DNA of 64,000 nucleotides, taken from the NCBI RefSeq assembly GCF_058153355.1, contig NZ_CM177019.1; one strand, 5' to 3'. Made by a program: the position numbers and the translations under genes. This document shows, piece by piece, positions 1-61,752 of the stretch (its first letter is position 1; each line of letters begins with the position of its first letter). The notes beneath the pieces are model-generated. The model did not search any database and was not told where the DNA came from. It saw only the letters and a program-made list of their open reading frames with translations.

Positions 1-2
1 GT

Positions 3-389
3 TTTGATCTTCCGAGCGAAGATGAATGGGAATATTTATGTGGCGGTGGTTCCAGGACACTCTGGCGCTGGGGGAATAATTTCGACTATCAAATGAAAAT
101 CCCATTTATTACTTCAGAAGAACCAACAACCTGGGATATAGAATGGCCTAATCAGTTTGGGTTGCAGATTGCATTTGATCCCTATCTTCAGGAAATTATT
201 AATGATAAAGATATTCTTCTGAAAGGTGGCGATGGTGGGTGCAATCTCTGCGGAGGTGCTAATGTTGTATTAGGATTCTTGCCTGTGGCAACTTATTACA
301 AAGGATATAATAAACATACGGACGAATTAGAATATATGGATGACATTGGAGACAATTATACTTCTTATCGCAGAATAATTCGTTTATGA
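3..389 (+). CDS. 5'-truncated CDS at window edge; C-terminal part of a protein with a formylglycine-generating-enzyme-like (SUMF1/DUF323) signature
   Basis: Open frame runs from the window start to TGA at 387-389. Translation contains LPSEDEWEYLCGGG...WRWGN, resembling the LPTEAEWEYAARGG...PWGN core of FGE-like domains. Family call is from motif memory only. Confidence 0.35.
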   Translation, partial: FDLPSEDEWEYLCGGGSRTLWRWGNNFDYQMKIPFITSEEPTTWDIEWPNQFGLQIAFDPYLQEIINDKDILLKGGDGGCNLCGGANVVLGFLPVATYYKGYNKHTDELEYMDDIGDNYTSYRRIIRL

Positions 390-470
390 GTAAAAATTAT
401 ATTTCAGGACAAGAAGTTATGCTCGGGTCAAGCTAATGAATTGCTTAACGCAAGGAATAAAAACGTATTG

Positions 471-1952
471 ATGAACACTGGGAATTTCGAGTCGATACAA
501 ATCATGATCGACGCGCAAGAGTGGCGTAGCCTGCCGCTGCATCTGCGTCTGTATCACGCTTTTCGCCAATTGGTGATTTCCGGCGCATTGTCTGATGGCG
601 CAAAACTGCCTTCCGCTCGCGCACTGGCCCAGCAACTTGGTCTTTCCAGAGATACCATCGAAAATGCCTATTCCCAGCTCCACCGCGACGGTTTTATGGC
701 TCGCAGGCAGGGGGCCGGGAGTTTCGCCAGCCGCCAGGGGATACCGCATATTCAGGGCCAGCATGCGCAACCACCCTCGCCCGGACAAGTACCGGCTTTA
801 AGCGCTCGCTGGCAGCCAATTGCCGATCGCGCAGTCTCTTTCGATGCCCGCCAGATGCAGACCTTTACGCTTGGCCTGCCGGAAACGCGAAACTTCCCGC
901 TAAACATTTGGCAGAACTTTTCCCGCCAGATCCAACGTGAGCAGGCACATACGCTGATGTTAAATAGCGATCCGCAGGGCGAGCCACAGCTGCGCCAGCA
1001 AATTGCGCATTACCTTAATTTTGAACGCGGCGCGAAGGTAGATGCCGGGCAGATTGTGATTGTCAGCGGCGCACGGCAGGCGTTCTGGCTGTGCGGGCAA
1101 CTGCTGGCAGAGGCCGGACAGTCGGTGGCGATGGAAAATCCGGGCTATCCCGGCGCGCGTCAGGCGTTTTCTGCCGCACAGCTTAATCTTCTTCCCGTTG
1201 AAGTGGATGACGCCGGGATCCGGGTGGATAAACTGCCGCCCGCGCCGCTGGTTTACGTCACGCCCTCGCACCAGTTTCCTTCCGGTCATTTGCTCACGCT
1301 GGCGCGGCGTCATGCCCTGATTGCCTGGGCGCAGGCGCACAATGCGTGGATTATCGAAGACGACTACGACAGCGAATTTCACTACACCAGCGCGCCCGTC
1401 GCCTGTCTGCAAGGGTTAGACTGCGAGCAACGCACCCTGTATGTCGGCACTTTCAGCAAAACGCTCTATCCCGGCCTGCGCATCGGTTATCTGGTGGTGC
1501 CGACGTCGCTGGCTGCGCACTTTGCCGCCGCGCGTAATTTGCTTGATGGCGCAACGCCTGCGTTATCCCAACTAACGCTGGCGCGATTTATCGAGTCCGG
1601 TCATTTTGCCGCCCATATTCGCAACATGCGTAGTATGTATGCGGTGCGACAGGGGTGCCTGGCAGAGGCTATTCATCAGCACTTAAGTGAATGGGTCACG
1701 CCAGTGGTGACATCCGGTGGATTGCAAATGCCCTGCTGGCTGCATGGAGGTATTGATGAGCAACAGACGCTGAATGCCGCGCGCCGCGCCGGGTTAAACA
1801 TCGCCGGAATGCGCCAGTTCTGGCTGACGCACCCCGCGCACGCGGGCTGGCTGCTGGGATTCGCCGCCTTTACCCCCTACGAGATTGAACAGGGCGTCAA
1901 GCGTCTGCGGGCTGCATTATGCACTGAAAACGTGCGCCCAGCCGGGTCATAA
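471..1952 (+). CDS. MocR/GntR-family transcriptional regulator (N-terminal wHTH fused to a PLP aminotransferase-like domain)
   Basis: ORF-track 441..1952 begins at TTG. ATG at 471 sits about 13 nt after AGGAA. N-terminal HTH-like segment (LYHAFRQLVISGAL...LPSARALAQQLGLSRDTIENAY) followed by about 400 aa with aminotransferase-like features (SFSKTLYPGLRIGY). Visibly GC-rich. Confidence 0.75.
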   Translation: MNTGNFESIQIMIDAQEWRSLPLHLRLYHAFRQLVISGALSDGAKLPSARALAQQLGLSRDTIENAYSQLHRDGFMARRQGAGSFASRQGIPHIQGQHAQPPSPGQVPALSARWQPIADRAVSFDARQMQTFTLGLPETRNFPLNIWQNFSRQIQREQAHTLMLNSDPQGEPQLRQQIAHYLNFERGAKVDAGQIVIVSGARQAFWLCGQLLAEAGQSVAMENPGYPGARQAFSAAQLNLLPVEVDDAGIRVDKLPPAPLVYVTPSHQFPSGHLLTLARRHALIAWAQAHNAWIIEDDYDSEFHYTSAPVACLQGLDCEQRTLYVGTFSKTLYPGLRIGYLVVPTSLAAHFAAARNLLDGATPALSQLTLARFIESGHFAAHIRNMRSMYAVRQGCLAEAIHQHLSEWVTPVVTSGGLQMPCWLHGGIDEQQTLNAARRAGLNIAGMRQFWLTHPAHAGWLLGFAAFTPYEIEQGVKRLRAALCTENVRPAGS

Positions 1953-1956
1953 TCTC

Positions 1957-3003
1957 CTACGGGATGGTGTTGCAGGCAGCGGCAACCTGTTCCAGCGTCT
2001 GGCCTGCGCCAATAAATTCCACCTTATCGCCCGCTGTCGGCGTGACGGAGCTGGCATCGACCATAAAGCTGTCCATACAAACCCGCCCCAATACCGGTAA
2101 CCGCACGCCGCGCCAGCATACGCCCGCCGGAGGACGCATATTTCGCGGAACGCCATCCGCGTAACCCGCGGATATCGTAGCGATACGCAGCGGACGCGTG
2201 GCGGTAATCGTGCTGCCGTAGCCAACTGGCGTTCCCGCCGGGACATCCTGCACGCGCAGAATAGTTAGCGTCAGCGTAAAAGCCGGTTTTAGCGGCCTGG
2301 AAAACCACGGCTGGGCGACGCCAAACAGCGCAATCCCCGGACGGCAGAGATCTTCCCGCCAACCTGGTTGCAAAAACATTCCGCAGGAGTTCGCCAGCGA
2401 AAATCGGCTGCTGGGGAAAACCGTTTTTGCCTGCTGGAATAGCGCGTGTTGCGCCATATTTAACGCATGATCCGGCCTGTCGGCGTTCGCCAGATGGCTG
2501 ATGATATAGTCCGGCGCAGGCCAGTTACGCTCACGAAAAATCGCCGCCAGACGCATCAGTTGTTGCGGCATCATGCCCAGCCGCGACATACCAGAATCGA
2601 GCTGAATCATCACCGCGCTCCGTTGCTGGCGCGTTTCCAGTAACGTAAGCCACGCCATCACCTGGTCTACGGAATTGAGCAATGGCGTGATCTGCTGCGC
2701 GTAACAATACGCCATCGCCTCCGGCATAACCCCATTAAGCACTACCACCATCGCATCAGTGGGCAGGATTTTACGCAACGCCACGCCTTCAGAAAGCTGT
2801 GCGACAAAAAAGATCCGGCAGTTCGCCGCATACAGGGCGGGCGCAATCGCCTCCGCCCCCAGACCATAGGCATTGGCTTTCAACACCGCGCCACATTGCG
2901 CAGGGGCAGCATGGCGGGCCAGCATACGATAATTGTCGACGATGGCGGCGCGATTAACGCACATAACACCGCACGCCGCCTGGATTTCAGTAGAAGTCAT
3001 CAT
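1957..3003 (-). CDS. alanine racemase-family PLP enzyme (Alr paralog)
   Basis: 348-aa ORF with the AVLKANAYGLG PLP-lysine motif and overall colinearity with E. coli Alr. Start ATG overlaps the stop of the upstream SHMT-like gene (TAATG). GC-rich. Confidence 0.75.
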   Translation of the reverse strand: MMTSTEIQAACGVMCVNRAAIVDNYRMLARHAAPAQCGAVLKANAYGLGAEAIAPALYAANCRIFFVAQLSEGVALRKILPTDAMVVVLNGVMPEAMAYCYAQQITPLLNSVDQVMAWLTLLETRQQRSAVMIQLDSGMSRLGMMPQQLMRLAAIFRERNWPAPDYIISHLANADRPDHALNMAQHALFQQAKTVFPSSRFSLANSCGMFLQPGWREDLCRPGIALFGVAQPWFSRPLKPAFTLTLTILRVQDVPAGTPVGYGSTITATRPLRIATISAGYADGVPRNMRPPAGVCWRGVRLPVLGRVCMDSFMVDASSVTPTAGDKVEFIGAGQTLEQVAAACNTIP

Positions 3004-4238
3004 TAATAAGGCAACGGGTAGCGGTTGGTTAGTTGTATTACTTTTTGCTCAATATCGGCGCAAATGTCTGCAATATCTGATGAATTAATGGCGAAAATAA
3101 TTTCACTTATCCAGTCGGCAATCAGCGCAAAGTCATCCGCCTTCATCCCACGCGTGGTGCAGGCCGCGCTGCCAATACGAACGCCGGAGGTAATCAACGG
3201 CGGCTGCGGATCGCCCGGCAGGGTGTTTTTATTGACCGTGATCCCCGCCAGTTCGAGAAAGTACTCCACCTGTGCGCCGGTTAACCCCTGCGGGCGCAGG
3301 TCGATAATCCCCAGATGGCAGTCGGTGCCGTCCGTTAACAGCGTCAGGCCGCGCAGCGCCAGTTGCTGGCACATCGCCTGCGCATTGTCGATAACCTGCC
3401 CGGCATAACGTTTAAATTCCGGTTGTAATGCCTCGCCAAGCGCCACCGCTTTCGCTGCGATAACGTGCATCAACGGCCCGCCCTGCAAACCGGGAAAAAT
3501 GGCACTGTCGATTTTTTTCGCAAGCCTGGCGTCGTTGGTGAGGATCATGCCGCCGCGCGGCCCGCGCAATGTTTTATGCGTGGTGGTGGTGACCACATCA
3601 GCATACGCCAGCGGCGAAGGGAAACAGCCGCCCGCCACCAGCCCGGCAAAGTGCGCCATATCCACCAGCAAAATGGCGTCAACGGCATCGGCAATGCGGC
3701 GAAAACGGGCAAAATCATAGTGACGTGGATAAGCCGATCCTCCGGCAATAATCAACCGCGGGCGCTCACGCAGCGCGATCATCTCGACCTGATCCATATC
3801 AATCAAACCACTGTGCGCATCGACGCCATAGTGAAAAGCGTTAAACCATTTGCCGGATTGATTGACCGGCGAACCGTGCGTGAGATGCCCGCCGCATTGC
3901 AGGCTCATGCCAAGAATTTTGTCGCCGGGTTTCAGCAACGCCAGATGGACCGCCTGATTCGCCTGGCTGCCGGAGTGAGGCTGCACATTGACGTAACGCG
4001 CGCCAAAGAGCTGCTGCGCGCGGGTTATCGCCAGCATCTCAACCTCATCAATAAACTTACAGCCGCCGTAATAGCGATGCTGGTAATAACCTTCGGCGTA
4101 TTTATTGGTTAACACCGACCCCTGCGCCGCGAGAACGGCGGGGCTTACGAAATTCTCCGAGGCAATCAGTTCCAGCGACTGCTGCTGGCGCTGTTGCTCC
4201 TGGTTAATCAATGCAAAAAGTGGATCGTTATTTATCAT
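3003..4238 (-). CDS. serine hydroxymethyltransferase paralog (GlyA-like)
   Basis: Strong colinear similarity to GlyA ([57 protein letters not shown]). Start placed at MINNDPLF (ATG 4238), preceded by a GGGGGAAG RBS-like run; the ORF-track start at 4304 is an upstream extension. Confidence 0.85.
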
Positions 4239-4513
4239 GCGCTTCCCCCGCAAATTCATCATGCGATGATTTTCGCAGGGAAAACCTCGTCCGCACCCTG
4301 CCACTTTTTTGGGCAGGTGCAGACCACCTGTATGTCGTATTACTTAAAAGAAGAGAACATCGCTGACAATACCGGTATTAACTCCGAAATGAAGAGGGAA
4401 GAAGGCTCCGGCCATCTCCATGTGCGATTCTGGCTAGTAAAACATCATATTCCAGCTGCTCTTATCCGCCTACGTTATTGCATATACGGATAAGGCAGCC
4501 TCAATACGTACTT

Positions 4514-6067
4514 TTACTTGATATCTTTCACGCGCATACCGTTGATCTGTTCATCCGTGATGGTGTTACCCGCTTTAAAGTAATCAACCACCGCGTGATA
4601 AACGTAATAACCGCCCGTCGTATTGCGCGCTTTACCCTCGGTAAACGCGGTAAAACCATCTCCACCATCAGCAAGGAAACTCTGAGTGGCAATGTGGTAA
4701 ACCGTCGCATCTTCAATCGGTTTGCCATTCAAAGTCAGTGAGATAACCCGCTGACCAACCGGCTTGCTGCTGTCGTACTTCATTTCCAGGCCTTTCGATA
4801 CCTGTAAAACGCCATTACTTAAACTTGCGCCGTGTTCCATCAAACTGCGTAATTGTTTACCCGTGAGTTCCATCGTCACCAGTTCGTTGGGGAACGGGAA
4901 GGTACTGATGACGCCACCCATCGTAATTGCACCCGCCGGGATCTCATTGCGGATACCGCCAGAGTTGGTTAACGCCAACTGGGTATTTTTACCCGCCGCT
5001 GCCAGTAAAGCATCTGCCGCCAGGTTCCCGAGAGAAGCCGATTCACCATAGGCACGTTTTAGTTCAACCGGCGATTGCGCCACCGTTTGCTGCACGACTT
5101 CATCCAGCTTTTTATTCCAACTATCAATCACCTGTTTTGTTTGCGGATCGGGCTTCCACTCGTCGGCGTAAAGGGTTTTAAGCTCGAAGTTTTTCACCGT
5201 AAAAGTGTGCGGCTTCTCTTTGTAGTCCAGTACCAGTTTACCCACATCAATCCCACCGCTGTCAGTGGAGAGGATGAGCGTATTGCCGACTTTAATCGGT
5301 TCCGGCGTACCCACATGTGCATGCCCGGTGATCAAAATATCCAGCCCTTTCACCTGACTTGCCGTCTGAATATCTTTATCCAGTGCGCGGCGCACATCTG
5401 TGCCCCCCATACTGGACTGGCGGGCCGGAACACCTTCGTGAATCAGCGCAACGGTCAAATCAACCTTGCCTTTGAGTTCATCGATATAACGTTGTAGCCA
5501 TTTAATTTCATCACGCGCCTCAATACCCACTCGCGTTGCCGCAGATACCGTATCATTAAAGGCAAATACACCGTGCAAACCAATCACGCCAATTTTCACG
5601 CCGTCTTTTTCAATGATGGTATAGGGCTTATCCCAGAATGATTTACTGCTGTTCTGATAAAAAACATTACCCTGCACAATCGGGAATTTTGCCTGACTCA
5701 ACTGTAATAACGTATTGTCCCAGCCGTGATCAAATTCATGATTACCTATAGTGGCCGCATCGAACGGCATGGTATTCATAATATCGATAATCGCCTTGCC
5801 TTTAGTCAGGCTGCTGATATACGGCCCGGTAAAATAGTCACCCGCATCAAAAAACCAGGTCGCTTTGTTTTTAGCTTTTTCTTGTTTAACAAGCGTAGTG
5901 ATATTTGCCCAGCCGCCAATATCTCGTTTACCGTCAGCAATCCACGGCACTTTATAAGGCTCTACATGTGCATGGAGGTCGTTGGTATAAATGATGGTGA
6001 CATCTTTGGCGCAAGCCCAAAACGGCAGTGTTAATGCGATACCCGCAGCAAGCATTTTAATTTTCAT
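4514..6067 (-). CDS. secreted bifunctional metallophosphatase/5'-nucleotidase-family protein (UshA/CpdB-like), paralog 1
   Basis: N-terminal signal peptide ([20 protein letters not shown]). Metallophosphoesterase motifs NDLHAH, DAGDYF, GNHEFD, GHAH, followed by a 5'-nucleotidase C-terminal-like half. ATG 6067 follows GGAAGGGA; the ORF-track start 6073 is TTG. Confidence 0.85.
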
Positions 6068-6199
6068 AAACAATCCCTTCCAGTGAGATAAAGGATTGCT
6101 ACATTACGTTCTGAAAGGCTTTTTTATGTGAGAATACTCACATCCAGAGGCGATAACTGTAGGACAAAATCAACGACCTTATGAAATCGTTGGTGATAT

Positions 6200-7327
6200 A
6201 TGTCAAATCTGTTTGCGATTAATGTCTGTAAAACGTTCGGTTGTCGAAATTTGGGATTGGCCTCATCGGAAGATTACAGTTGGCCAGACTATAAACTGGG
6301 TTTTCCGGCACTGCACTGCCAGGCATGCGGAAGTTACCCCCCTTTGTTTGATGAACAACAATTTCGTGACTGGTTGTCAGTTCACATGACTGCGTGTGCC
6401 ATAGAAACAGGGCATTTTTGTCCATCATGCTATTGTAAAGAAAAGATTTTTTATGGCCACAACCCGCAGGGAACACAACGCGTTCAATGCCGTTCATGCA
6501 AAAAAGTCTGGACTCCGAAACAGCAGCCAGCAAGAGAAATTACGTATCCCCAGTCCATTGAAACCGTTCAACTGTTCATGCCCTTTCAAGGAGCCAGCGC
6601 AGTACAAAAGCTCTATGTTTTAGTCAGTCTTGACGCCACTCGTGGCAACATCCTTCATCTCTCCACGAATTATACGCAACATCAGACAGGAGACAGTCTG
6701 CGGTACAGTTACAGAGGCAATACAGAACCAACTGAGCACCATAGCGATATTGTGCAGAGGGTAGATATGCGTGAAGCGCAATTCTTGCGCCGGAGCCAGT
6801 TCGATGAAATTCAGTATGGCAGTGCTGTGCTCAAGCGCAACGGCAAGGGAGCCATACTACGCCCGGTTATCACGGCACACGGGCATTTCAGAATACTGAA
6901 AATCCGCTTTCCACATGTCAAAACGCATATCATTTCACACGAATGTTTTCTGAGAGGCGCAATTATTACAGCCTGGGCAGATCAGTTCCGCCAACAACAA
7001 GGCGAACTTTGGTTCGTAGAAGAAGAAATCAGCGACCGTAACGCTGATATTCCCTGGCATTTTCAGGGAACGACATACCATGGTTGGTGGCAAAATCAGT
7101 GGCAACGCTGGGGGCAGGGGAATAACAGCAAGATGGTCTGCCTGCTCACAGGAGTCTCCTTAGAAAGGGGCGCAAATGTTTCTCTGGCAACCAGTCGTTG
7201 CTTTATCACATGGCTGACAGACCAACACGACTTTACCCAAAGCGCGTTATTATCCGCAGGTCGCGTAACGAAAATGCTGACCTCACTGGCGTTAAAATAC
7301 AATGAATCGCTCAATCCATCTTGTTAG
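6200..7327 (+). CDS. hypothetical Cys-rich protein (zinc-ribbon-like N-terminus, W/Q-rich C-terminus)
   Basis: 375-aa ORF with CxxC pairs (CQACGS...CPSCYC...CRSCKK). No family I can assign with confidence. Flanked by AT-rich DNA and sits between nucleotidase paralogs. Confidence 0.5.
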   Translation: MSNLFAINVCKTFGCRNLGLASSEDYSWPDYKLGFPALHCQACGSYPPLFDEQQFRDWLSVHMTACAIETGHFCPSCYCKEKIFYGHNPQGTQRVQCRSCKKVWTPKQQPAREITYPQSIETVQLFMPFQGASAVQKLYVLVSLDATRGNILHLSTNYTQHQTGDSLRYSYRGNTEPTEHHSDIVQRVDMREAQFLRRSQFDEIQYGSAVLKRNGKGAILRPVITAHGHFRILKIRFPHVKTHIISHECFLRGAIITAWADQFRQQQGELWFVEEEISDRNADIPWHFQGTTYHGWWQNQWQRWGQGNNSKMVCLLTGVSLERGANVSLATSRCFITWLTDQHDFTQSALLSAGRVTKMLTSLALKYNESLNPSC

Positions 7328-7556
7328 TCAATACACTCGACAAACGACCATAAATTAATGGGATCACTATTTCTCATTTAATTAAATATATGAATGTATG
7401 ACTGAAAAATATAATCACAGTCAATGTTTAATTAATAACATTATTTGTTACTAAGATCACATAATACTTTCCTGACCTATGCTTACATAAAAATAAGACA
7501 CGGAGTTCCTTTTATTTAAATAATTCAACCAATGTAACAACCCCTATCAAGGAGGG

Positions 7557-9110
7557 ATGATGAGAACTGTATTTACGACTTTATCAGTCATATTCAGCGT
7601 GATGTTTTCTCACAGTATACTAGCTCAGGACGTTACTATTTATTATACGAATGATATTCACGCACATGTCAATCCGGCAAAAATTCCCGCTGTTGATAAG
7701 AACAGACTTGTAGGTGGTATGGCTAATATTGCAGGCATCGTTAATGAAGCGAAGAAAAAAAACAAAGATGTCTTTTTCTTTGATGCAGGCGACTATTTTA
7801 CCGGTCCGTATATCAGTACCCTGACCAAAGGTGAAGCTATTATTGATATCATGAACACCATGCCCTTTGATGCGGTATCCGTTGGTAATCACGAGTTCGA
7901 TCACGGCGTGCCCAATATGGTATCTCAGTTATCAAAAGCAAAATTCCCCATTCTGCTGGGAAATATTTACTACACCGATACAAATAAACCAGTTTGGGAT
8001 CATCCGTGGACCATTATCGAAAAAGATGGTTTAAAGATTGGTGTGATTGGATTGCATGGTGCATTCGCTTTCTATGATACAGTCGCGGCAAAAGCACGTG
8101 AAGGCGTAGAAGCCAGAGACGAAATTAAATATTTAAATAAAGCACTTGCAGAATTAAAAGGTAAAGTCGACATTACCGTTTTGCTAATTCACGAAGGTGT
8201 TCCGGCGCGTCAATCAAGCTTTGGTAGTAAAGATGTGGAGCGGCTACTACAGGCAGATATTGAGACAGCTAAAAAAGTGAATGGTGTTGATGTCTTAATT
8301 ACCGGTCACGCACATGTCGGAACACCGCAACCAATAAAAGTTAATAACACATTAATTGTATCTACCGATGCATACGGCACCGACATCGGAAAACTTGTGC
8401 TTGATTACAATCCGAAAACGAAGAAAATTGATAGTTATAATGGTGAGTTAATCACCATCTTCGCAGATCAATTTAAACCTGACACCATCGTTCAAAATAC
8501 TATCGATAAATGGAGTGCAAAGCTTAACAAAATAACACAGGAAGTTGTCGGCCATTCTCCCGTAGTTTTAACACGTGAGTATGGCAGTTCTTCTTCTACC
8601 GGTAACCTTATTCTTGATGCAATGATGGAAAAAACACCAGATGCCATTGCCGGATTTCAAAATAGCGGTGGGATGCGAGCTGATTTTCCTAAAGGTGATA
8701 TCACGCTGGGAGATGTTATTAGCACATTCCCCTTTAATAATGACCTCATCGAGATGGATTTGACGGGCCGCGATCTCAAATCGTTGATGACGCATGCAAC
8801 CAATCTAACTAACGGTGTGTTACAGGTTTCAAAAAGCGTTGCGGTTGTCTATGACAGCAAAAAACCACTGAACCAACGGTTAATCTCTTTCACCATTAAC
8901 GGCAAACCCGTGGAAGATAATCAAACATATCGTATTGTCACGCACTCCTTTTGTGCCAGTGGTGGTGACGGTTTTGAAGCATTTTTGAATGGAAAAAATG
9001 TGAAGACGATACCGGGAACAACCTCGGCGGAATCTATCATCGATTATTTCAAAAATCATAAACCTGTCACCCCAGACTTAACTAAACGAGTAATGGACGT
9101 CGCCAAATAA
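7557..9110 (+). CDS. secreted bifunctional metallophosphatase/5'-nucleotidase-family protein, paralog 2
   Basis: AAGGAGGG immediately upstream (ATG 7557 or 7560). Signal peptide, then NDIHAH, DAGDYF, GNHEFD, GHAH motifs; colinear with paralogs 1 and 3. Confidence 0.85.
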   Translation: MMRTVFTTLSVIFSVMFSHSILAQDVTIYYTNDIHAHVNPAKIPAVDKNRLVGGMANIAGIVNEAKKKNKDVFFFDAGDYFTGPYISTLTKGEAIIDIMNTMPFDAVSVGNHEFDHGVPNMVSQLSKAKFPILLGNIYYTDTNKPVWDHPWTIIEKDGLKIGVIGLHGAFAFYDTVAAKAREGVEARDEIKYLNKALAELKGKVDITVLLIHEGVPARQSSFGSKDVERLLQADIETAKKVNGVDVLITGHAHVGTPQPIKVNNTLIVSTDAYGTDIGKLVLDYNPKTKKIDSYNGELITIFADQFKPDTIVQNTIDKWSAKLNKITQEVVGHSPVVLTREYGSSSSTGNLILDAMMEKTPDAIAGFQNSGGMRADFPKGDITLGDVISTFPFNNDLIEMDLTGRDLKSLMTHATNLTNGVLQVSKSVAVVYDSKKPLNQRLISFTINGKPVEDNQTYRIVTHSFCASGGDGFEAFLNGKNVKTIPGTTSAESIIDYFKNHKPVTPDLTKRVMDVAK

Positions 9111-9150
9111 AATATCATTTATCAGTCTATTTATTTAACAAGGAATGCGA

Positions 9151-10770
9151 ATGAAAACAGTGCAGCGTACTTTACTTGCCGCAACATTGCTGACTATTTT
9201 TTCGGTCTCAGCCATGGCGCAGGATGTCACGATTATTTATACCAATGATCTTCACGCTCATGTGGATTCTTATAAAGTGCCGTATATCGCAGACGGAAAA
9301 CGCGACATTGGCGGCTTTGCCAATATATCTACTTTAGTAAAACAAGAGAAAGCGAAAAATAAAGCCACCTTTTATTTTGATGCTGGAGACTATTTCACCG
9401 GCCCTTATATCAGCAGTCTGACAAAGGGCGAAGCAATAATTGACATTATGAATACCATGCCTTTTGACGCAGTATCAATCGGTAATCATGAGTTTGACCA
9501 TGGCTGGGATAATGCCCTGCGACAATTAAGCAAAGCGAATTTTCCTGTTTTATTGGGCAATGTTTATCATAAAGAGAGTGAGAAACCCTTCTGGAACAAG
9601 CCCTACACCATCCTGGAAAAAGATGGCATCAAGATTGGTATTATTGGGCTACACGGCGTATTTGCATTTAATGATACGGTCTCGGAGCTCTCTCTCCAGG
9701 GACTCGATAATGACAATAATAACCGCTTTGATAAATCTTCCGAGACCCTTAAGAATCAGGGGATTGAAGCACGTGATGAAGTGAAGTATTTGCAGCATTA
9801 TATCGACGAGTTACGTGATAAGGTTGACCTCACTGTGGCGCTGGTTCATGAAGGCGTTCCGGCGCGTCAGTCCAGCATTGGCATTACAGATGTTAGACGC
9901 GCTCTTGATAAAGATATTCAAACCGCTAGCAAGGTGAAAGGATTGGATATTCTGATTACCGGGCATGCCCACGTCGGAACGCCAGAACCAATCAAAGTCG
10001 GCAACACCTTAATCCTTTCAACTGATAGTGGCGGTATCGATATTGGTAAATTAGTCCTTGATGTCAACCCTACAGCTCGTACCCATAAAATGAAGAGCTT
10101 TGAGCTGAAAACAGTTTATGCCGATGAATGGATACCCGATCCAACGACACAAAAAGTTATCAATGGCTGGAATAAAAAACTGGCGGATATTGTACGCCAA
10201 CCAGTGGGTGAATCATCGATTGCATTAACTCGCGCCTATGGTGAGTCATCGCAACTAGGCAACCTGTTTACCGATGCAATGCTTGTCGCTGCTCCGACTG
10301 CACAGATTGCATTGATAAACTCCGGCAGCTTACGTGCGGATATAAATGCAGGCACGATTACCTTTGGCGACATTACCAGTACATTCCCCTTCAAGAATGA
10401 ACTTACTGAAATGGATCTCAGCGGTAAGGATCTGCGTAACCTACTGGAACACGGGGCATCGCTTACCAATGGCATCCTGCAAATGTCAAAAGGCGCAGAA
10501 ATGCGCTATACCCCGCAGAAACCAGTAGGTCAGCGCATAGTATCTTTTAAAATTAATGGTGAAGAGATCGTTGATACGAATATTTACCATGTTGCAACAA
10601 CGACTTTCCTTGCACTGGGGGGCGATGGTTTTCTGGCATTCAAAGAAGGGAAAAATGTTCAGGTCCGCGCCGGAAAAAACATGTCCGATGTCGTGATCGA
10701 TTATTTGAAGAAAGGCCACAAGATTACGCCTGCACAGGTAAATGAAATGCGGGTGGACGTTAGCAAATAA
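9151..10770 (+). CDS. secreted bifunctional metallophosphatase/5'-nucleotidase-family protein, paralog 3
   Basis: ATG 9151 lies 7 nt after AAGGA (ORF-track start 9145). Very close to paralog 1 over most of its length but with an extra insert of about 25 aa (ELSLQGLDNDNNNRFDKSSETLKNQG). Followed by a hairpin terminator. Confidence 0.85.
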   Translation: MKTVQRTLLAATLLTIFSVSAMAQDVTIIYTNDLHAHVDSYKVPYIADGKRDIGGFANISTLVKQEKAKNKATFYFDAGDYFTGPYISSLTKGEAIIDIMNTMPFDAVSIGNHEFDHGWDNALRQLSKANFPVLLGNVYHKESEKPFWNKPYTILEKDGIKIGIIGLHGVFAFNDTVSELSLQGLDNDNNNRFDKSSETLKNQGIEARDEVKYLQHYIDELRDKVDLTVALVHEGVPARQSSIGITDVRRALDKDIQTASKVKGLDILITGHAHVGTPEPIKVGNTLILSTDSGGIDIGKLVLDVNPTARTHKMKSFELKTVYADEWIPDPTTQKVINGWNKKLADIVRQPVGESSIALTRAYGESSQLGNLFTDAMLVAAPTAQIALINSGSLRADINAGTITFGDITSTFPFKNELTEMDLSGKDLRNLLEHGASLTNGILQMSKGAEMRYTPQKPVGQRIVSFKINGEEIVDTNIYHVATTTFLALGGDGFLAFKEGKNVQVRAGKNMSDVVIDYLKKGHKITPAQVNEMRVDVSK

Positions 10771-10782
10771 TAAAAAAATTAT

Positions 10783-10816
10783 AATGCCATTCATTCACTG
10801 AATGGCATTATTTTCT
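10783..10816 (+). terminator. rho-independent terminator after nucleotidase paralog 3
   Basis: Palindrome AATGCCATTCA...TGAATGGCATT followed by a T-rich run. Confidence 0.6.
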
Positions 10817-10847
10817 CTAAATCAACAATAGATAATGAGATATATTT

Positions 10848-11708
10848 ATGTGTATAAAAAAGCACGGGATAGCTTTATCGATTCTATTAATACCTTGCAT
10901 TGGAAACGCTCAGGAAATTAAAAGTGAGGAAGGCTGGTTACATCAAAGCTTGAATGTCATTGGTCGCACAGACTCTCGCTTTGGCCCAAGGCTGACTAAC
11001 GACCTCTACCCTGAATATACTGTAGCAGGAAGAAAAGACTGGTTTGATTTTTATGGTTATGTTGATCTACCAAAATTCTTTGGCGTCGGCAGTCACTATG
11101 ATGTTGGGATCTGGGATGAGGGCTCACCACTATTTACGGAAATAGAACCTCGGTTTTCCATTGACAAATTGACCGGATTAAATCTTGCGTTCGGCCCTTT
11201 TAAAGAATGGTTCATTGCAAACAACTATGTCTATGATATGGGTGACAACCAGTCATCCCGGCAAAGTACATGGTATATGGGGCTTGGTACAGATATCGAC
11301 ACGGGTCTACCAATTAAGCTTTCTGCCAATATATACGCCAAGTATCAGTGGCAAAACTATGGTGCCGCTAATGAAAATGAATGGGACGGATATCGATTCA
11401 AAATAAAATATAGCATTCCTCTTACCCATTTATTCGGAGGGCGATTGGTATACAATAGTTTTACTAACTTTGATTTTGGATCCGATCTTGCGGACAAATC
11501 ACACAATAATAAACGAACCAGTAATGCTATTGCTTCAAGCCATATCCTTTCCCTGCTATATGAACACTGGAAATTTGCATTTACACTACGTTATTTTCAC
11601 AACGGTGGACAATGGAATGCTGGGGAGAAAGTTAACTTCGGAGATGGTCCATTTGAATTAAAAAACACAGGATGGGGAACCTATACTACTATTGGTTATC
11701 AATTTTAA
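10848..11708 (+). CDS. Tsx-family nucleoside-specific outer-membrane channel (Tsx paralog)
   Basis: 286-aa ORF with signal peptide and long colinear identity to E. coli Tsx ([70 protein letters not shown], terminal F). Confidence 0.85.
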
Positions 11709-11885
11709 ATCAGGTGATGTTTTAGATATTTTTACTTAATGCCATTTTGTAATTGTCATAAATAACTTCACCATTCACACTGTGAATTCATCGCTCAACA
11801 CAAAAGCCCCCTTATTACCGGGGCACTGACCAAAGGCAAAATGACAATCAATCACCACCTCCGCAGGAGGTGGTTTAGAGGTGAC

Positions 11886-11913
11886 AACAAAAGCTGGCAA
11901 CTGCCAGCTTTTG
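11886..11913. terminator. palindromic hairpin downstream of metL (likely bidirectional terminator)
   Basis: ACAAAAGCTGGCAACTGCCAGCTTTTGT palindrome just past the metL stop. A second palindrome (ACCACCTCCGCAGGAGGTGGT) lies at 11854-11874. Confidence 0.55.
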
Positions 11914-11924
11914 TTCAATAATCA

Positions 11925-14357
11925 CTACAACAACTGCGCCAGACGGTTAATATCCGACTGAATCGCCCCGGCGGTGACGTCGCGCCCTGCGCCTGGCCCA
12001 CGGATCACCAGCGGGTTGTCGCGATACCAGCGGCTTTCGATGGCAAAGACGTTATCGCACGGTAGTAGTGATGCCAGCGGATGGTCTTCTCGCACCGCTT
12101 CCACGCCTACTCGCGCTTTGCCGTTAGCATCGAAACGCGCCACGTAGCGCAACACCAGCCCCATTTCACGGGCCGCTTCCAACCGTTGTACCATCTGCTC
12201 ATTAAGTTCATCGCCATTTTCAAAGAAATGGTCGATGCTGCCACCTTCGCAATGGGTTGGCACCAGTGATTCAACACGCACCTGGTCCGGTTCAATGTTG
12301 TAACCCGCTTCACGCGCCAGAATCACCAGCTTGCGCATCACATCTTTGCCGGAGAGGTCATCACGCGGGTCAGGTTCAGTTAAGCCCTGCTGCCACGCCT
12401 GATCCACCAGCTCAGTAAACGGCACGCTACCGTCGAATTGCAGGAACAGCCAGGAGAGCGTGCCGGAGAAGATCCCGCTGATCGACAAAATAGTGTCGCC
12501 GCTGTCGATCAGATCGCGCACGGTATGGTTGATCGGCAAACCTGCGCCGACGGTGGCGTTGTATAGCCAGTGACGCCCGGTTTTTTCGAACGCGTCGTGG
12601 ATCTGTCGATATTTATTGCTGTCGCTGGCTCCCGCCAGTTTGTTGGCACTGATGACGTGGAAACCGTGGCTGGCGAAATCGAGATACTGATCAGCAAGCT
12701 GCTGGCTGGCAGTAACGTCCAGCACCACTAAATCATCATACGGATGGGCACGCATCCACAGGAACAGCGACTCTTCATCCTGTTCGACGGCTTCATCATT
12801 AAAGAAGGCTAGCGCACGGCTGGCGTCCAGCCCGTCATAGCTCAACAGGCTGCGACGGCTGTCCACCACGCCTGCCAGCACAAATTCAAAGCCGGTGCGC
12901 GCCGAGAGCGTGCTCTGCTCACGGGCGAACAGTTCCAGCCAGCGGGAACCGATATTGCCCTTACCGAACAATACCAGGCCGATGCGTTTTTCTGCGCGGA
13001 AGACGGACTGATGCAGCCCCTGAATCAGGCTTTCGGTCGGCCCGGTGCGCAGTACTGCCACCAGGCTGATGCCGTCATCGGACTGCCAGGTAAACTCGAC
13101 CGGCTGGCCTTTCAGTTGCTGCCAGAAGCGGTGGCAATGCAGCGGGTTACGGGTGACGCCCGCCCCAACCATCGCCACCAGCGCCAGCCCCTGACGCAGG
13201 CGCAGTTCGCCGGGTAATCCTGCTTCGTCGAGGATTTTCAGCGCACTGTCGGCCACTTCCGAGGTGTAGCAAAATTGCAGCAACTGGCGATCGTTATGCA
13301 CGCCAACTGCCAGTGGGCGCACCTGAGCACGTTTCAGGATTTGGTCGATCTCTTTATGCGCCAGTTTAAAATCCTGACTGGCGGGCACCTGAAACTCAAT
13401 CAAACAGACATCATCGTGGCTGGTGACAATACGCGCGCCAGTACCTGAGGCCAGCACGCGTTCAATACGCGTAGATCCTTGATCCGGTGTATAGCTACAG
13501 CGCAGCTGCAGGTCGATTTCGCTGCCAGAAACTGGCTGTAAAGTACGCGCGTGCAACACTGGCGCGGCAAGACGCGCCAGTTCACTGGCTTCATCAAGAC
13601 GCAGCAATGGCAGCAGACAGGCATCTTTCACTTTACGCGGGTCGGCACTATATACCCCGGCGACATCGCTCCAGATGGTTACGCGGGAAACCCCCGCCAG
13701 CGCACCGATTTGTGTCGCGGAATAGTCGGAACCGTTACGCCCCAGCAGCACCGTTTCACCGGCGTTGTTACGGCTGATAAACCCGGTCACCACCAGACGT
13801 TTGCCCGGATGTTGTACCAGTAGCTGTTGCAGCAACGGGTAAGAAAGCCCTTCATCAACCTGCGGCTGCGCGGCGCGTTCAGCGCGTAAAAACTCGCGGG
13901 CATCAAGCCAGGCCGCTGGCAGCCCTTGTTGATTAAGTACCGCAGACATCAGGCGCGCCGACCACACTTCACCGTGGCCCACCACTTCCGCATACACCGC
14001 ATCGTTAATACCGCTGTCGAGCAGCGCCGCCAGGCGTTCCAGATCGCTGACAAAAGCGCTAATGAGGCTATCGGCTTCTTCAGCGGGTAGCAGGCCGCTA
14101 ATCAGATCGCACTGATAGCGACGCAGCGTTTGTTGAACCTGATGCGCAGAGAGACGATCGGTCTGGCTTAGTTTCAACCAGTTAATCAACTGGTTAGTGG
14201 TGCTACCGGCGGCGGAAACCACCATCATATCGTCAGGCTGAGAGTACTCCGCCATAATGCCCGCGACACGCAAATAACACTTCACATCAGCCAGACTACT
14301 GCCACCAAATTTATGCAGTTGACGACCTTTCGCCCCTGCCTGCGCAATCACACTCAT
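11925..14357 (-). CDS. metL: bifunctional aspartokinase II / homoserine dehydrogenase II
   Basis: 810-aa ORF matching MetL in length and sequence. Two-nt gap to metB, as in the metBL operon. Confidence 0.95.
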   Translation of the reverse strand: MSVIAQAGAKGRQLHKFGGSSLADVKCYLRVAGIMAEYSQPDDMMVVSAAGSTTNQLINWLKLSQTDRLSAHQVQQTLRRYQCDLISGLLPAEEADSLISAFVSDLERLAALLDSGINDAVYAEVVGHGEVWSARLMSAVLNQQGLPAAWLDAREFLRAERAAQPQVDEGLSYPLLQQLLVQHPGKRLVVTGFISRNNAGETVLLGRNGSDYSATQIGALAGVSRVTIWSDVAGVYSADPRKVKDACLLPLLRLDEASELARLAAPVLHARTLQPVSGSEIDLQLRCSYTPDQGSTRIERVLASGTGARIVTSHDDVCLIEFQVPASQDFKLAHKEIDQILKRAQVRPLAVGVHNDRQLLQFCYTSEVADSALKILDEAGLPGELRLRQGLALVAMVGAGVTRNPLHCHRFWQQLKGQPVEFTWQSDDGISLVAVLRTGPTESLIQGLHQSVFRAEKRIGLVLFGKGNIGSRWLELFAREQSTLSARTGFEFVLAGVVDSRRSLLSYDGLDASRALAFFNDEAVEQDEESLFLWMRAHPYDDLVVLDVTASQQLADQYLDFASHGFHVISANKLAGASDSNKYRQIHDAFEKTGRHWLYNATVGAGLPINHTVRDLIDSGDTILSISGIFSGTLSWLFLQFDGSVPFTELVDQAWQQGLTEPDPRDDLSGKDVMRKLVILAREAGYNIEPDQVRVESLVPTHCEGGSIDHFFENGDELNEQMVQRLEAAREMGLVLRYVARFDANGKARVGVEAVREDHPLASLLPCDNVFAIESRWYRDNPLVIRGPGAGRDVTAGAIQSDINRLAQLL

Positions 14358-60918: not shown

Positions 60919-61752
60919 TTAATTACTCAAACGCTGCGGATGGGTATAAACCGTTGCCCGACCCGGCTTACAAAAGCCCACCAGCGTCAAATTACAGCGC
61001 TCAGCCACTTCTACGGCAAGCGTGGTCGCGGCAGACACCGCAAACAAAATTTCTACGCCGCACATCGCTGACTTTTGCACCATTTCATAACTGGCACGAC
61101 TGGAAACCAGCACCGCACCTTGCTGCCAGCTTTCCCCTTCTTGTGACCGGCGGCCTAACAGTTTATCCAGCGCCACATGGCGACCCACGTCTTCATGCCC
61201 GCCTACCAGTTCGCCAGATGGCAACATCCAGGCAGCGGCGTGAGTACAACCAGTCAGTTGCCCCACTGGCTGGAAATCATTGAGATGGCGTAATGCATCA
61301 TCCAGTTTGTTGAGATCAAATGTCTGAGTGAACGGCAGCGGCTGCACCGGTTTACCGATGTCATTAAGTTGCTCCACGCCGCACACGCCACATCCCGTAC
61401 GTCCCGCCAGTGCCCGACGACGCTCCTTCAACCCCATAAAGCGGCGGCTGGAAAGCTCAATTTGCACTTCCAGACCATTACAGGAAGGAACGACATCCAT
61501 ACCGAAGATATCGCGCGGACTTTCGATAATCCCCTCGGAAAGCGAAAAACCGAGCGCAAAGTATTCAAGGTCTTTGGGCGACGCCATCATCACCACATGC
61601 GAAATGCCGTTGTAGACCAGCGCAACGGGAACCTCTTCCGCCACCTCATCTAACCGTGGGTGTTGTAAATCGTCACGCCGCCATAACTCAATTTGACGAA
61701 CACCTGTGACATTTATCACATTTTTGATTTCTTTTTGCTGTGTTTTTTTCAC
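60919..61752 (-). CDS. fdhD: formate dehydrogenase accessory sulfurtransferase FdhD
   Basis: 277-aa [31 protein letters not shown]. Confidence 0.93.

Follow-up and report, generated by a model that had tools for sequence, protein, structure and literature searches.

The 64,000-nucleotide (nt) stretch analyzed here, from contig NZ_CM177019.1 of RefSeq assembly GCF_058153355.1 and referred to as the window, contains an accessory block of about 7.4 kb between metL and the metF promoter of Escherichia coli. This island replaces the approximately 200-nt spacer of strain K-12, which contains repetitive extragenic palindromic (REP) sequence; its junctions are the metL stop codon and a point about 150 nt upstream of metF, and neither repeats nor an integrase were found there. 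The island has a G+C content of 40–46%, compared to 54–60% in both flanks. A preliminary description of this DNA had recognized a four-gene module of three 5'-nucleotidase genes and an adjoining Tsx-family channel gene. The interval 4514–11708 holds five genes, not four: a conserved gene at 6200–7327, encoding a cysteine-rich (Cys-rich) protein and forming the most unusual component of the group, had been missed. The island is organized as follows.

4514..6067, minus strand: NT5-A, nucleotidase of 517 amino acids (aa) counted from the RefSeq ATG at 6067; the open reading frame extends over 4514–6073
6200..7327, plus strand: Cys-rich gene, cytoplasmic protein of 375 aa combining a pair of Zn-binding modules and a DDE-transposase-like core; candidate regulator of the module
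7560..9110, plus strand: NT5-B, nucleotidase of 516 aa (open reading frame start at 7557/7560), second orthologous group
9151..10770, plus strand: NT5-C, nucleotidase of 539 aa (open reading frame start at 9145/9151), third orthologous group
10781..10811, plus strand: AT-rich, terminator-like hairpin with a T run between NT5-C and the tsx-like gene, from a consensus scan only
10848..11708, plus strand: paralogue of the Tsx-family outer-membrane nucleoside channel, 286 aa

The Cys-rich gene and NT5-A are transcribed divergently. The hairpin downstream of NT5-C has a stem of 13 pairs, 4 of them G-C, and is probably a leaky terminator. RefSeq annotates every gene of the island, and the product of the Cys-rich gene is labelled "cytoplasmic protein" or "hypothetical". 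An Rfam scan of 4000–12500 gave no RNA family even at E <= 1, so the idea that the conserved intergenic blocks represent a known riboswitch or leader was dropped. A reading of the island as a defence system was likewise dropped, since PADLOC gave no match for any of the five proteins.

Nucleotidases and the Tsx-like channel

The three nucleotidases are 56–69% identical to one another. Each of them contains the Pfam domains Metallophos (PF00149, E 3e-12 to 5.5e-12) and 5_nucleotid_C (PF02872, E 1e-39 at best), and the motifs TNDxHAH, AGDYFTG, GNHEFDH, and TGHAHV are present, as the preliminary description had stated for three paralogous genes between 4514 and 10770. An alignment with UshA extends this agreement to the active site. 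The UshA metal ligands D41, H43, D84, N116, H217, and H252 are identical in NT5-A, NT5-B, and NT5-C, while Q254 is replaced by His in all three. The catalytic His-Asp pair H117/D120 is kept, together with R410, F429, N431, F498, and D504. The segment containing R375 and R379 of UshA shows a single Arg in the nucleotidases (R338 in NT5-A), in a region where the alignment is uncertain. The roles of these metal, catalytic, and substrate-pocket residues are known from published UshA structures. Since the metal and catalytic residues are conserved, all three proteins are predicted to be active nucleotide phosphohydrolases.

Each nucleotidase begins with a basic, hydrophobic leader that ends at an AxA-type site just before (K/Q)DVT. 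These leaders, read by eye, are of the signal peptidase I (SPase-I) type, and neither a lipobox nor a sorting motif was seen in the three proteins; the periplasm is thus the likeliest location, as for UshA, and release into the medium is not suggested. The signal peptides of the preliminary description are retained on this basis, while its term "secreted" is best replaced by "probably periplasmic". For NT5-A, the PDB entries 3IVD and 3IVE ("Nucleotidase") are about 98% identical over residues 19–517, and the PDB construct begins right after the leader. We take these entries to be c4898 of E. coli CFT073, presumably from a structural-genomics project; no functional paper on them was found in the literature.

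In a neighbor-joining tree, NT5-A, NT5-B, and NT5-C fall into three old orthologous groups common to Citrobacter, Enterobacter, and Klebsiella, with UshA as a distant outgroup. NT5-B is 71–72% identical to the second nucleotidase of Enterobacter and to the adjacent nucleotidase of Klebsiella, and NT5-C is 86% identical to the second Klebsiella nucleotidase. NT5-C further carries a 22-aa insertion rich in Asn and Asp in its N-terminal domain. As the groups are old and kept separately in other genera, the tree supports functional specialization and argues against recent redundancy, which fits the earlier suggestion that divergent copies might differ in specificity.

The Tsx-like protein at 10848–11708 scores 491.8 bits against a cut-off of 311 on the NCBIfam model PRK15106, with residues 2–286 covered, and is 65% identical to K-12 Tsx. 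Its assignment to the Tsx family, already made in the preliminary description, is genuine by this score, and channel function is predicted.

The Cys-rich partner protein and its gene neighborhoods

The 375-aa Cys-rich protein contains no Pfam domain beyond a faint InsA Zn ribbon. It belongs to a small family: among 1.84 billion proteins, clustering at 50% leaves 123 representatives. All members with an identified source organism belong to Enterobacteriaceae or Vibrionaceae/Psychromonas. Eight cysteines, 87–100% conserved, are arranged in two modules (C10/C15/C40/C43 and, in the InsA-type ribbon, C74/C77/C97/C100), and the family also conserves R198, H229, H247, E248, W297, and W301. The predicted model (pLDDT 94) consists of an InsA-like Zn ribbon and a DDE-transposase fold, with weak fold similarity to EndoV and PIWI. 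A profile-profile comparison (hhalign) of the family with IS1 InsA gave 94% probability (E 1.3e-7), the match covering the Zn ribbon and, in members of 450–520 aa, a helix-turn-helix (HTH). PF03811 matches 7 of 48 family members at E <= 1e-3, and the family profile yielded only spurious C2H2 zinc-finger matches among PDB sequences. Taken together, the Zn-ribbon match, the HTH of the long members, and a candidate acidic triad give the Cys-rich protein, as modeled, the architecture of an IS1-type InsAB' transposase. The gene does not behave as an insertion sequence; it is single-copy (median, one place per genome), and no inverted repeats flank it.

The partner has diverged much faster than the nucleotidase that it accompanies. 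In the full and short forms of the E. coli locus (window 6200–7327 versus locus L003, 8687–9817), NT5-A is 98% identical and the partner about 73%; among the Vibrionaceae loci L021–L043, the nucleotidases are 69–82% and the partners 32–51% identical.

Outside E. coli, the gene keeps similar company. In Citrobacter, the metF-metL site is again the location, and an A-type nucleotidase gene is transcribed divergently from it. The divergent pair is found at another chromosomal site both in Enterobacter hormaechei, with two nucleotidases and Tsx, and in a Klebsiella species, with the arrangement nucleotidase-Tsx-nucleotidase. In L012 and L046, which contain more distant members, the gene and a nucleotidase are divergent as well. 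When species-representative genomes were scanned, 23 loci emerged in Vibrio, Photobacterium, Enterovibrio, Aliivibrio, Thaumasiovibrio, Psychromonas, and one fragment of an unclassified gammaproteobacterial metagenome-assembled genome. A nucleotidase 32–36% identical to NT5-A and NT5-C is located directly upstream on the same strand, forming a two-gene operon, in 21 of the 22 loci with upstream DNA. These two genes are the only ones that the Vibrionaceae/Psychromonas loci have in common, and the flanks vary. Relatives of the Cys-rich protein at 26–29% identity are encoded divergently from three further types of operon, namely nupC with a PNP/UDP phosphorylase, a deo operon (add-deoC-deoA-deoB-deoD) beside a Bmp-type ABC transporter, and a porin with a class-B acid phosphatase (AphA-like) and a class-II phosphodiesterase. 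With the exception of one subfamily, represented by L020 and L045, the Cys-rich gene always adjoins nucleoside or nucleotide genes.

Promoter elements: CRP sites and the CCAAC box

The intergenic region between NT5-A and the Cys-rich gene, together with the spacer upstream of NT5-B, contains the following elements.

6127..6142, no strand assigned: perfect CRP core TGTGAGAATACTCACA with 0 mismatches, in the divergent promoter region of NT5-A and the Cys-rich gene
6176..6195, minus strand: "CCAAC box" CACCAACGATTTCATAAGGT, whose start, in the direction of NT5-A, is 53 nt upstream of the CRP core
7446..7461, no strand assigned: candidate CRP-like site TGTTACTAAGATCACA with 1 mismatch, in the AT-rich 232-nt spacer (7328–7559) upstream of NT5-B

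The window contains only two perfect CRP cores. The one at 6127–6142 lies about 67 nt from the start codon of NT5-A and 65 nt from that of the Cys-rich gene; the second, TGTGACATTTATCACA, is located at 61705–61720. In an alignment of five enterobacterial promoter sequences from four genera (the full and short E. coli forms, Citrobacter, Enterobacter, and Klebsiella), the right half-site TCACA is kept in all five. The left half reads TGTGA in both E. coli forms and Citrobacter, and TGCGA or TGCGT in Enterobacter and Klebsiella. The intergenic region as a whole, in which the block holding the CCAAC box is also conserved, is 85% conserved across these sequences, which is more than the aa identity of the Cys-rich proteins (61–73%) but less than that of NT5-A (89–98%). 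A Pho-box scan of the island allowing up to 3 mismatches found none, so control by PhoB is not indicated.

The CCAAC box reaches to within 5 nt of the start codon of the Cys-rich gene, and an inverted repeat, CAACGA/TCGTTG (6171–6192), overlaps it. The composite CACCAAC-N46-TGTGAN6TCACA on the minus strand at 6127–6195 occurs once in the 64 kb, where none is expected. The Vibrionaceae loci display the same arrangement. The start of their 20-nt CCAAC box, with the consensus aaCCAACaCAaatgGtAACt, precedes the CRP core by exactly 53 nt at 21 of 22 loci and by 52 nt at the other. A CRP core with up to 2 mismatches stands at the fixed position in 20 of the 22 Vibrionaceae NT5 promoters, compared to a background of 1.2% for such a core anywhere in a 30-nt range. 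The spacer sequence between the two elements is not conserved in Vibrionaceae. The box also stands 52–54 nt from CRP in L012, L046, L013, L015, and L019, including the nupC and deo promoters (nhmmer E 2.4e-5 for the deo composite). L013 shows composites at three places, by the start of the family gene, by the porin operon, and upstream of a major facilitator superfamily (MFS) transporter gene. In all cases, the box points towards the catabolic genes. Its distance from the start codon of the family gene is at most about 70 nt in the divergent arrangements examined (the window, L012, L015, L019, and L046). The centers of the box and the CRP site are separated by approximately five helical turns.

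Two candidates were discarded. A direct comparison with the CRP consensus led us to reject the box as a degenerate distal CRP site, and a weak box upstream of nupC in L041 was set aside because no CRP site follows it. We also observed that the composites of L013 (5014–8134, GCA_006755885.1) face outward on both sides of the family gene, towards the porin/AphA-like/phosphodiesterase operon on one side and the MFS gene on the other, and that the upstream spacer of this locus contains about 700 nt of apparently inserted sequence.

An IS1 copy interrupts NT5-B in strain EC17CM2 (L047, 4118–4913), and its terminal repeats GGTAATGACTCCAACTTACTGAT and GGTGATGCTGCCAACTTACTGAT have the CCAAC core in common with the box; InsA binds IS1 terminal repeats. 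We treat this likeness as a lead, not proof. It raises the question of whether the Cys-rich protein could be a still-active IS1-like transposase or recombinase, with the nucleotidases as cargo and the box as a transposon end. The Zn ribbon and DDE fold, the mostly conserved acidic triad, the CCAAC of the IS1 ends, and the occurrence of the NT5/partner cassette in different neighborhoods in different species all agree with such activity. We nonetheless hold it to be very improbable. There is one copy of the gene per genome, 25% of the members have another residue in place of the first Asp of the triad, and the E. coli junctions show no repeats but a replaced REP-containing spacer. A scan beyond the Cys-rich gene in the Vibrio loci, which have one strong box each, found no inverted partner, which speaks against the box as a transposon end. 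The rigid 53-nt spacing to CRP, with the box pointing at a catabolic operon, would be senseless for such an end, and the neighbors, although of four unrelated types, are coherently devoted to nucleosides and nucleotides.

Further elements adjoin the CRP core. In the Vibrionaceae NT5 promoters of L025, L029, L030, L033, L034, and L040, a LacI-family-type palindrome (GCAAACGTTTGC or GTAAACGATTGC) is situated between the CCAAC box and this core, directly upstream of the latter, and may represent a CytR- or PurR-like operator on the same promoter. In the enterobacterial sequences, a block at 6095–6119 (minus-strand CCTTTCAGAACGTAATGTAGCAATC), between the CRP site and the start codon of NT5-A, is near-invariant across the four genera and could be a -10 region. 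Within it, AATGTAGC matches 7 of 8 positions of the CytR octamer, AATGYAAC. An 8-nt inverted repeat, CCTTTCAG/CTGAAAGG, flanks the block and overlaps the ribosome-binding site of NT5-A.

Another explanation would make the Cys-rich protein an enzyme of the cytoplasm instead of a regulator, such as an RNase H-fold nuclease for nucleotide turnover, with the CCAAC box bound by a different factor such as CytR. The RNase H-like fold with its conserved R198, H229, H247, and E248 is compatible with an enzyme, as is the weak similarity to EndoV and PIWI, and the palindrome GCAAACGTTTGC next to the CRP site in some Vibrio promoters would suit a LacI-type factor. However, the box is unlike the CytR half-site, GTTGCATT. 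Local regulators typically show such a divergent or operon-linked gene placement together with a specific DNA motif, InsA-type modules are known as DNA-binding repressor domains, and it is not obvious what would connect a cytoplasmic nuclease with periplasmic nucleotidases, porins, and nupC. We consider an enzymatic role unlikely, if somewhat less so than transposase activity.

Distribution, proposed mechanism, and relation to known systems

The distribution of the island was determined in 5426 complete E. coli genomes. NT5-A and the Cys-rich gene are present in 1844 of them and constitute a minimal unit kept in all carriers. The full five-gene island occurs in 658 genomes, for example NU14, LF82, and SMS-3-5, and about 1186 carry the short form consisting of these two genes only. 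Signs of decay comprise the IS1 insertion in NT5-B described above and, in SMS-3-5, a truncated pseudogene of the Tsx paralogue (L001, 20349–21194). On the metF side of the window, a GC-rich block (1–4304, 54–60%) contains three further genes.

441–1952, plus strand: MocR-type pyridoxal phosphate (PLP) regulator
1957–3003, minus strand: alanine-racemase-like gene
3003–4304, minus strand: second serine hydroxymethyltransferase (SHMT), reading frame open in the window

Beside the nucleotidase island, this block is found in 2 of the 5426 genomes (2013C-4282 and WL297), and the window represents this rare variant. The SHMT gene is annotated as a pseudogene in 2013C-4282.

The same distribution bears on a role in host interaction, which the preliminary description had considered plausible. 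The nucleotidases would then act on host ATP, NAD, or cyclic dinucleotides, yielding adenosine or blunting immune signaling. AdsA, NudP, and CdnP do so in Gram-positive pathogens. The full island is common in extraintestinal pathogenic (ExPEC) and adherent-invasive (AIEC) E. coli of phylogroups B2 and F (NU14, LF82, SMS-3-5) and in BEN2908 and related model strains. Moreover, the nucleotidase family includes ecto-5'-nucleotidases, and the NCBIfam Nt5e and LPXTG models are among the weak matches. The Nt5e scores, however, reach 135–156 bits against a cut-off of 1050, and the SPase-I leaders come without a surface anchor, which makes retention of the enzymes in the periplasm probable. Many non-B2 E. 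coli carry the short form, and the NT5/partner unit also occurs in marine Vibrionaceae and Psychromonas. The promoter bears a signature of catabolite control, with a perfect CRP core of catabolic appearance, and the enzymes are coupled to a nucleoside channel. A host role therefore found no support here, and we judge it highly unlikely.

We propose instead that the island probably serves to scavenge nucleotides in the periplasm under the control of cAMP-CRP, its likely regulator being a domesticated IS1-like transposase. NT5-A, NT5-B, and NT5-C, as periplasmic dinuclear-metal enzymes and old paralogues with probably different substrate ranges, would dephosphorylate nucleotides that are unable to cross the inner membrane. 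The Tsx paralogue would add outer-membrane permeability for nucleosides, and the resulting nucleosides would be imported and catabolized by the core nucleoside machinery. Expression would be tied to carbon limitation through cAMP-CRP, and the position of the CRP core, about 65 nt from both start codons, would fit a class II arrangement. The Cys-rich protein would serve as a dedicated transcription factor that binds the CCAAC box near -94 of the NT5-A promoter and acts together with CRP near -41.5. It would also hold down its own expression, as the box reaches to within 5 nt of the start codon of its gene. The data show the gene content, the family memberships, the conserved catalytic residues, the CRP-consensus sequence, the conserved pairing of the genes, the modeled fold, and the conserved composite DNA element. 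What we infer in this scheme is the periplasmic location, the substrates, the dependence on CRP, the binding of the Cys-rich protein to DNA, the effector, and whether regulation is positive or negative.

Several points weigh against this proposal. The signal peptides were judged by eye only. The HTH stretch that the longer family members share with InsA is missing from the 375-aa E. coli-type protein, in which DNA binding would fall to the Zn modules alone. The candidate triad D145/D202/E248 is acidic in 75%, 87%, and 100% of the family, respectively; being largely kept, it leaves room for a nuclease or recombinase role. The enterobacterial CCAAC box scores below 11 bits on the Vibrio-derived matrix, and nhmmer aligned only the CRP part in Enterobacteriaceae. 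No CCAAC box was found at the canonical distance upstream of NT5-B, NT5-C, or the tsx-like gene. Lastly, two members have other neighbors: in L020 (2519–7263), a subfamily member follows a Tsx-like channel, a sulfatase, and a radical-SAM/SPASM maturase, and in L045 (6001–8391), a related member is convergent with a radical-SAM gene and a 441-aa gene, which are not nucleoside genes. This divergent subfamily clusters with P0158 and P0165.

More tentatively, and with somewhat more reservation than confidence, we extend the proposal to the family as a whole. The Cys-rich proteins may form an unrecognized class of bacterial transcription factors derived from an IS1-type transposase, which would recognize an IS-end-like CCAAC operator five helical turns upstream of CRP and, with CRP, control a scavenging regulon (NT5/Tsx, nupC-phosphorylase, deo, and porin-AphA-phosphodiesterase) parallel to CytR or in its place. 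The DDE-fold core would have become a ligand sensor.

The enzymes and the channel add little in themselves, as they extend the known scavenging logic of UshA and Tsx; the enzymes are ordinary, and the interest lies in the partner gene. Extra, probably specialized periplasmic nucleotidases are carried by about one third of E. coli genomes, with one in most carriers and three in 12% of all genomes. The carriers include major ExPEC and AIEC lineages, for which the island could be a fitness factor in nucleotide-rich niches (mucus, urine, lysed cells, or extracellular DNA). If the Cys-rich protein is a regulator, bacteria would offer in it a clear example of a transposase that was domesticated to serve as the transcription factor of one specific pathway, and its operator/CRP architecture, conserved from Vibrio to E. 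coli, would be available for testing as it stands. There would then also be an unrecognized nucleoside/nucleotide regulon alongside CytR and DeoR, and a gene that bears only the labels "cytoplasmic protein" or "hypothetical" in thousands of genomes would gain a function.

Among known systems, the nucleotidases resemble UshA, NadN, and CpdB in their Metallophos and 5_nucleotid_C architecture, a signal peptide (by eye), the His-Asp catalytic dyad, two base-stacking Phe residues, and a phosphate-binding Arg, with the dinuclear-metal ligands kept apart from the exchange of UshA Q254 for His. In contrast, NT5-A, NT5-B, and NT5-C are only 24–27% identical to UshA, and its R375/R379 pair is probably reduced to one Arg. 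Their NCBIfam scores are 153–165 against a cut-off of 600 for UshA, 122–134 against 436 for NadN, and 81–105 against 486 for CpdB; being far below these cut-offs, they place the nucleotidases in a separate subfamily and not among the orthologues of those three enzymes. The island further differs in having three co-located paralogues linked to a dedicated partner gene. The protein in PDB 3IVD/3IVE is essentially the same as NT5-A and covers NT5-A only.

The module likewise resembles Tsx and the CytR/CRP regulon (tsx, deo, udp, cdd, nupC, nupG) in its Tsx-family channel, its nucleoside-scavenging logic, and the CRP site in the promoter, although its channel is a 65%-identical paralogue carried on the island. 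The upstream element lies about 52–53 bp from the promoter-proximal CRP site, which corresponds to the spacing of tandem CRP sites. In CytR-controlled promoters, tandem CRP sites have 30–31 bp between them, and only a weak consensus is described for the CytR half-site (PMC3454398). Unlike those promoters, the module has the CCAAC box at the distal position in place of a second CRP site, and no clear CytR operator was called. That comparative-genomics study of CytR does not mention these nucleotidases (PMC3454398).

The Cys-rich protein differs from the IS1 transposase (InsA/InsAB') in its low score on the NCBIfam IS1 model (20 bits; cut-off, 100) and in an additional Cys4 module at the N terminus. 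Its E. coli form lacks the HTH stretch, and its gene is single-copy, has no flanking inverted repeats, and is stably paired with nucleoside and nucleotide genes, the pairing with NT5 being kept across orders. Our search of the literature on domesticated transposases and nucleosides found nothing on the Cys-rich family.

The island itself has been catalogued as "GR 31 metL..metF", a region common to the avian pathogenic E. coli (APEC) strain BEN2908 and model B2 strains, for which the same scavenging role was proposed from bioinformatics (PMC12928451, PLoS One 2026). The envelope module of the preliminary description is thus a reasonable interpretation but not a new one. Its remark that the grouping was not recognized as a characterized E. 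coli system holds in that no experimental work on the island genes was found in the literature; the genes are, however, annotated in RefSeq and represented by 3IVD/3IVE and GR 31. The GR 31 study lists the Tsx gene and the three nucleotidase open reading frames only, and does not discuss the Cys-rich gene, the promoter elements, the short form, or the homologues outside E. coli. As far as the searched literature shows, the Cys-rich gene and its operator/CRP architecture are described here for the first time.

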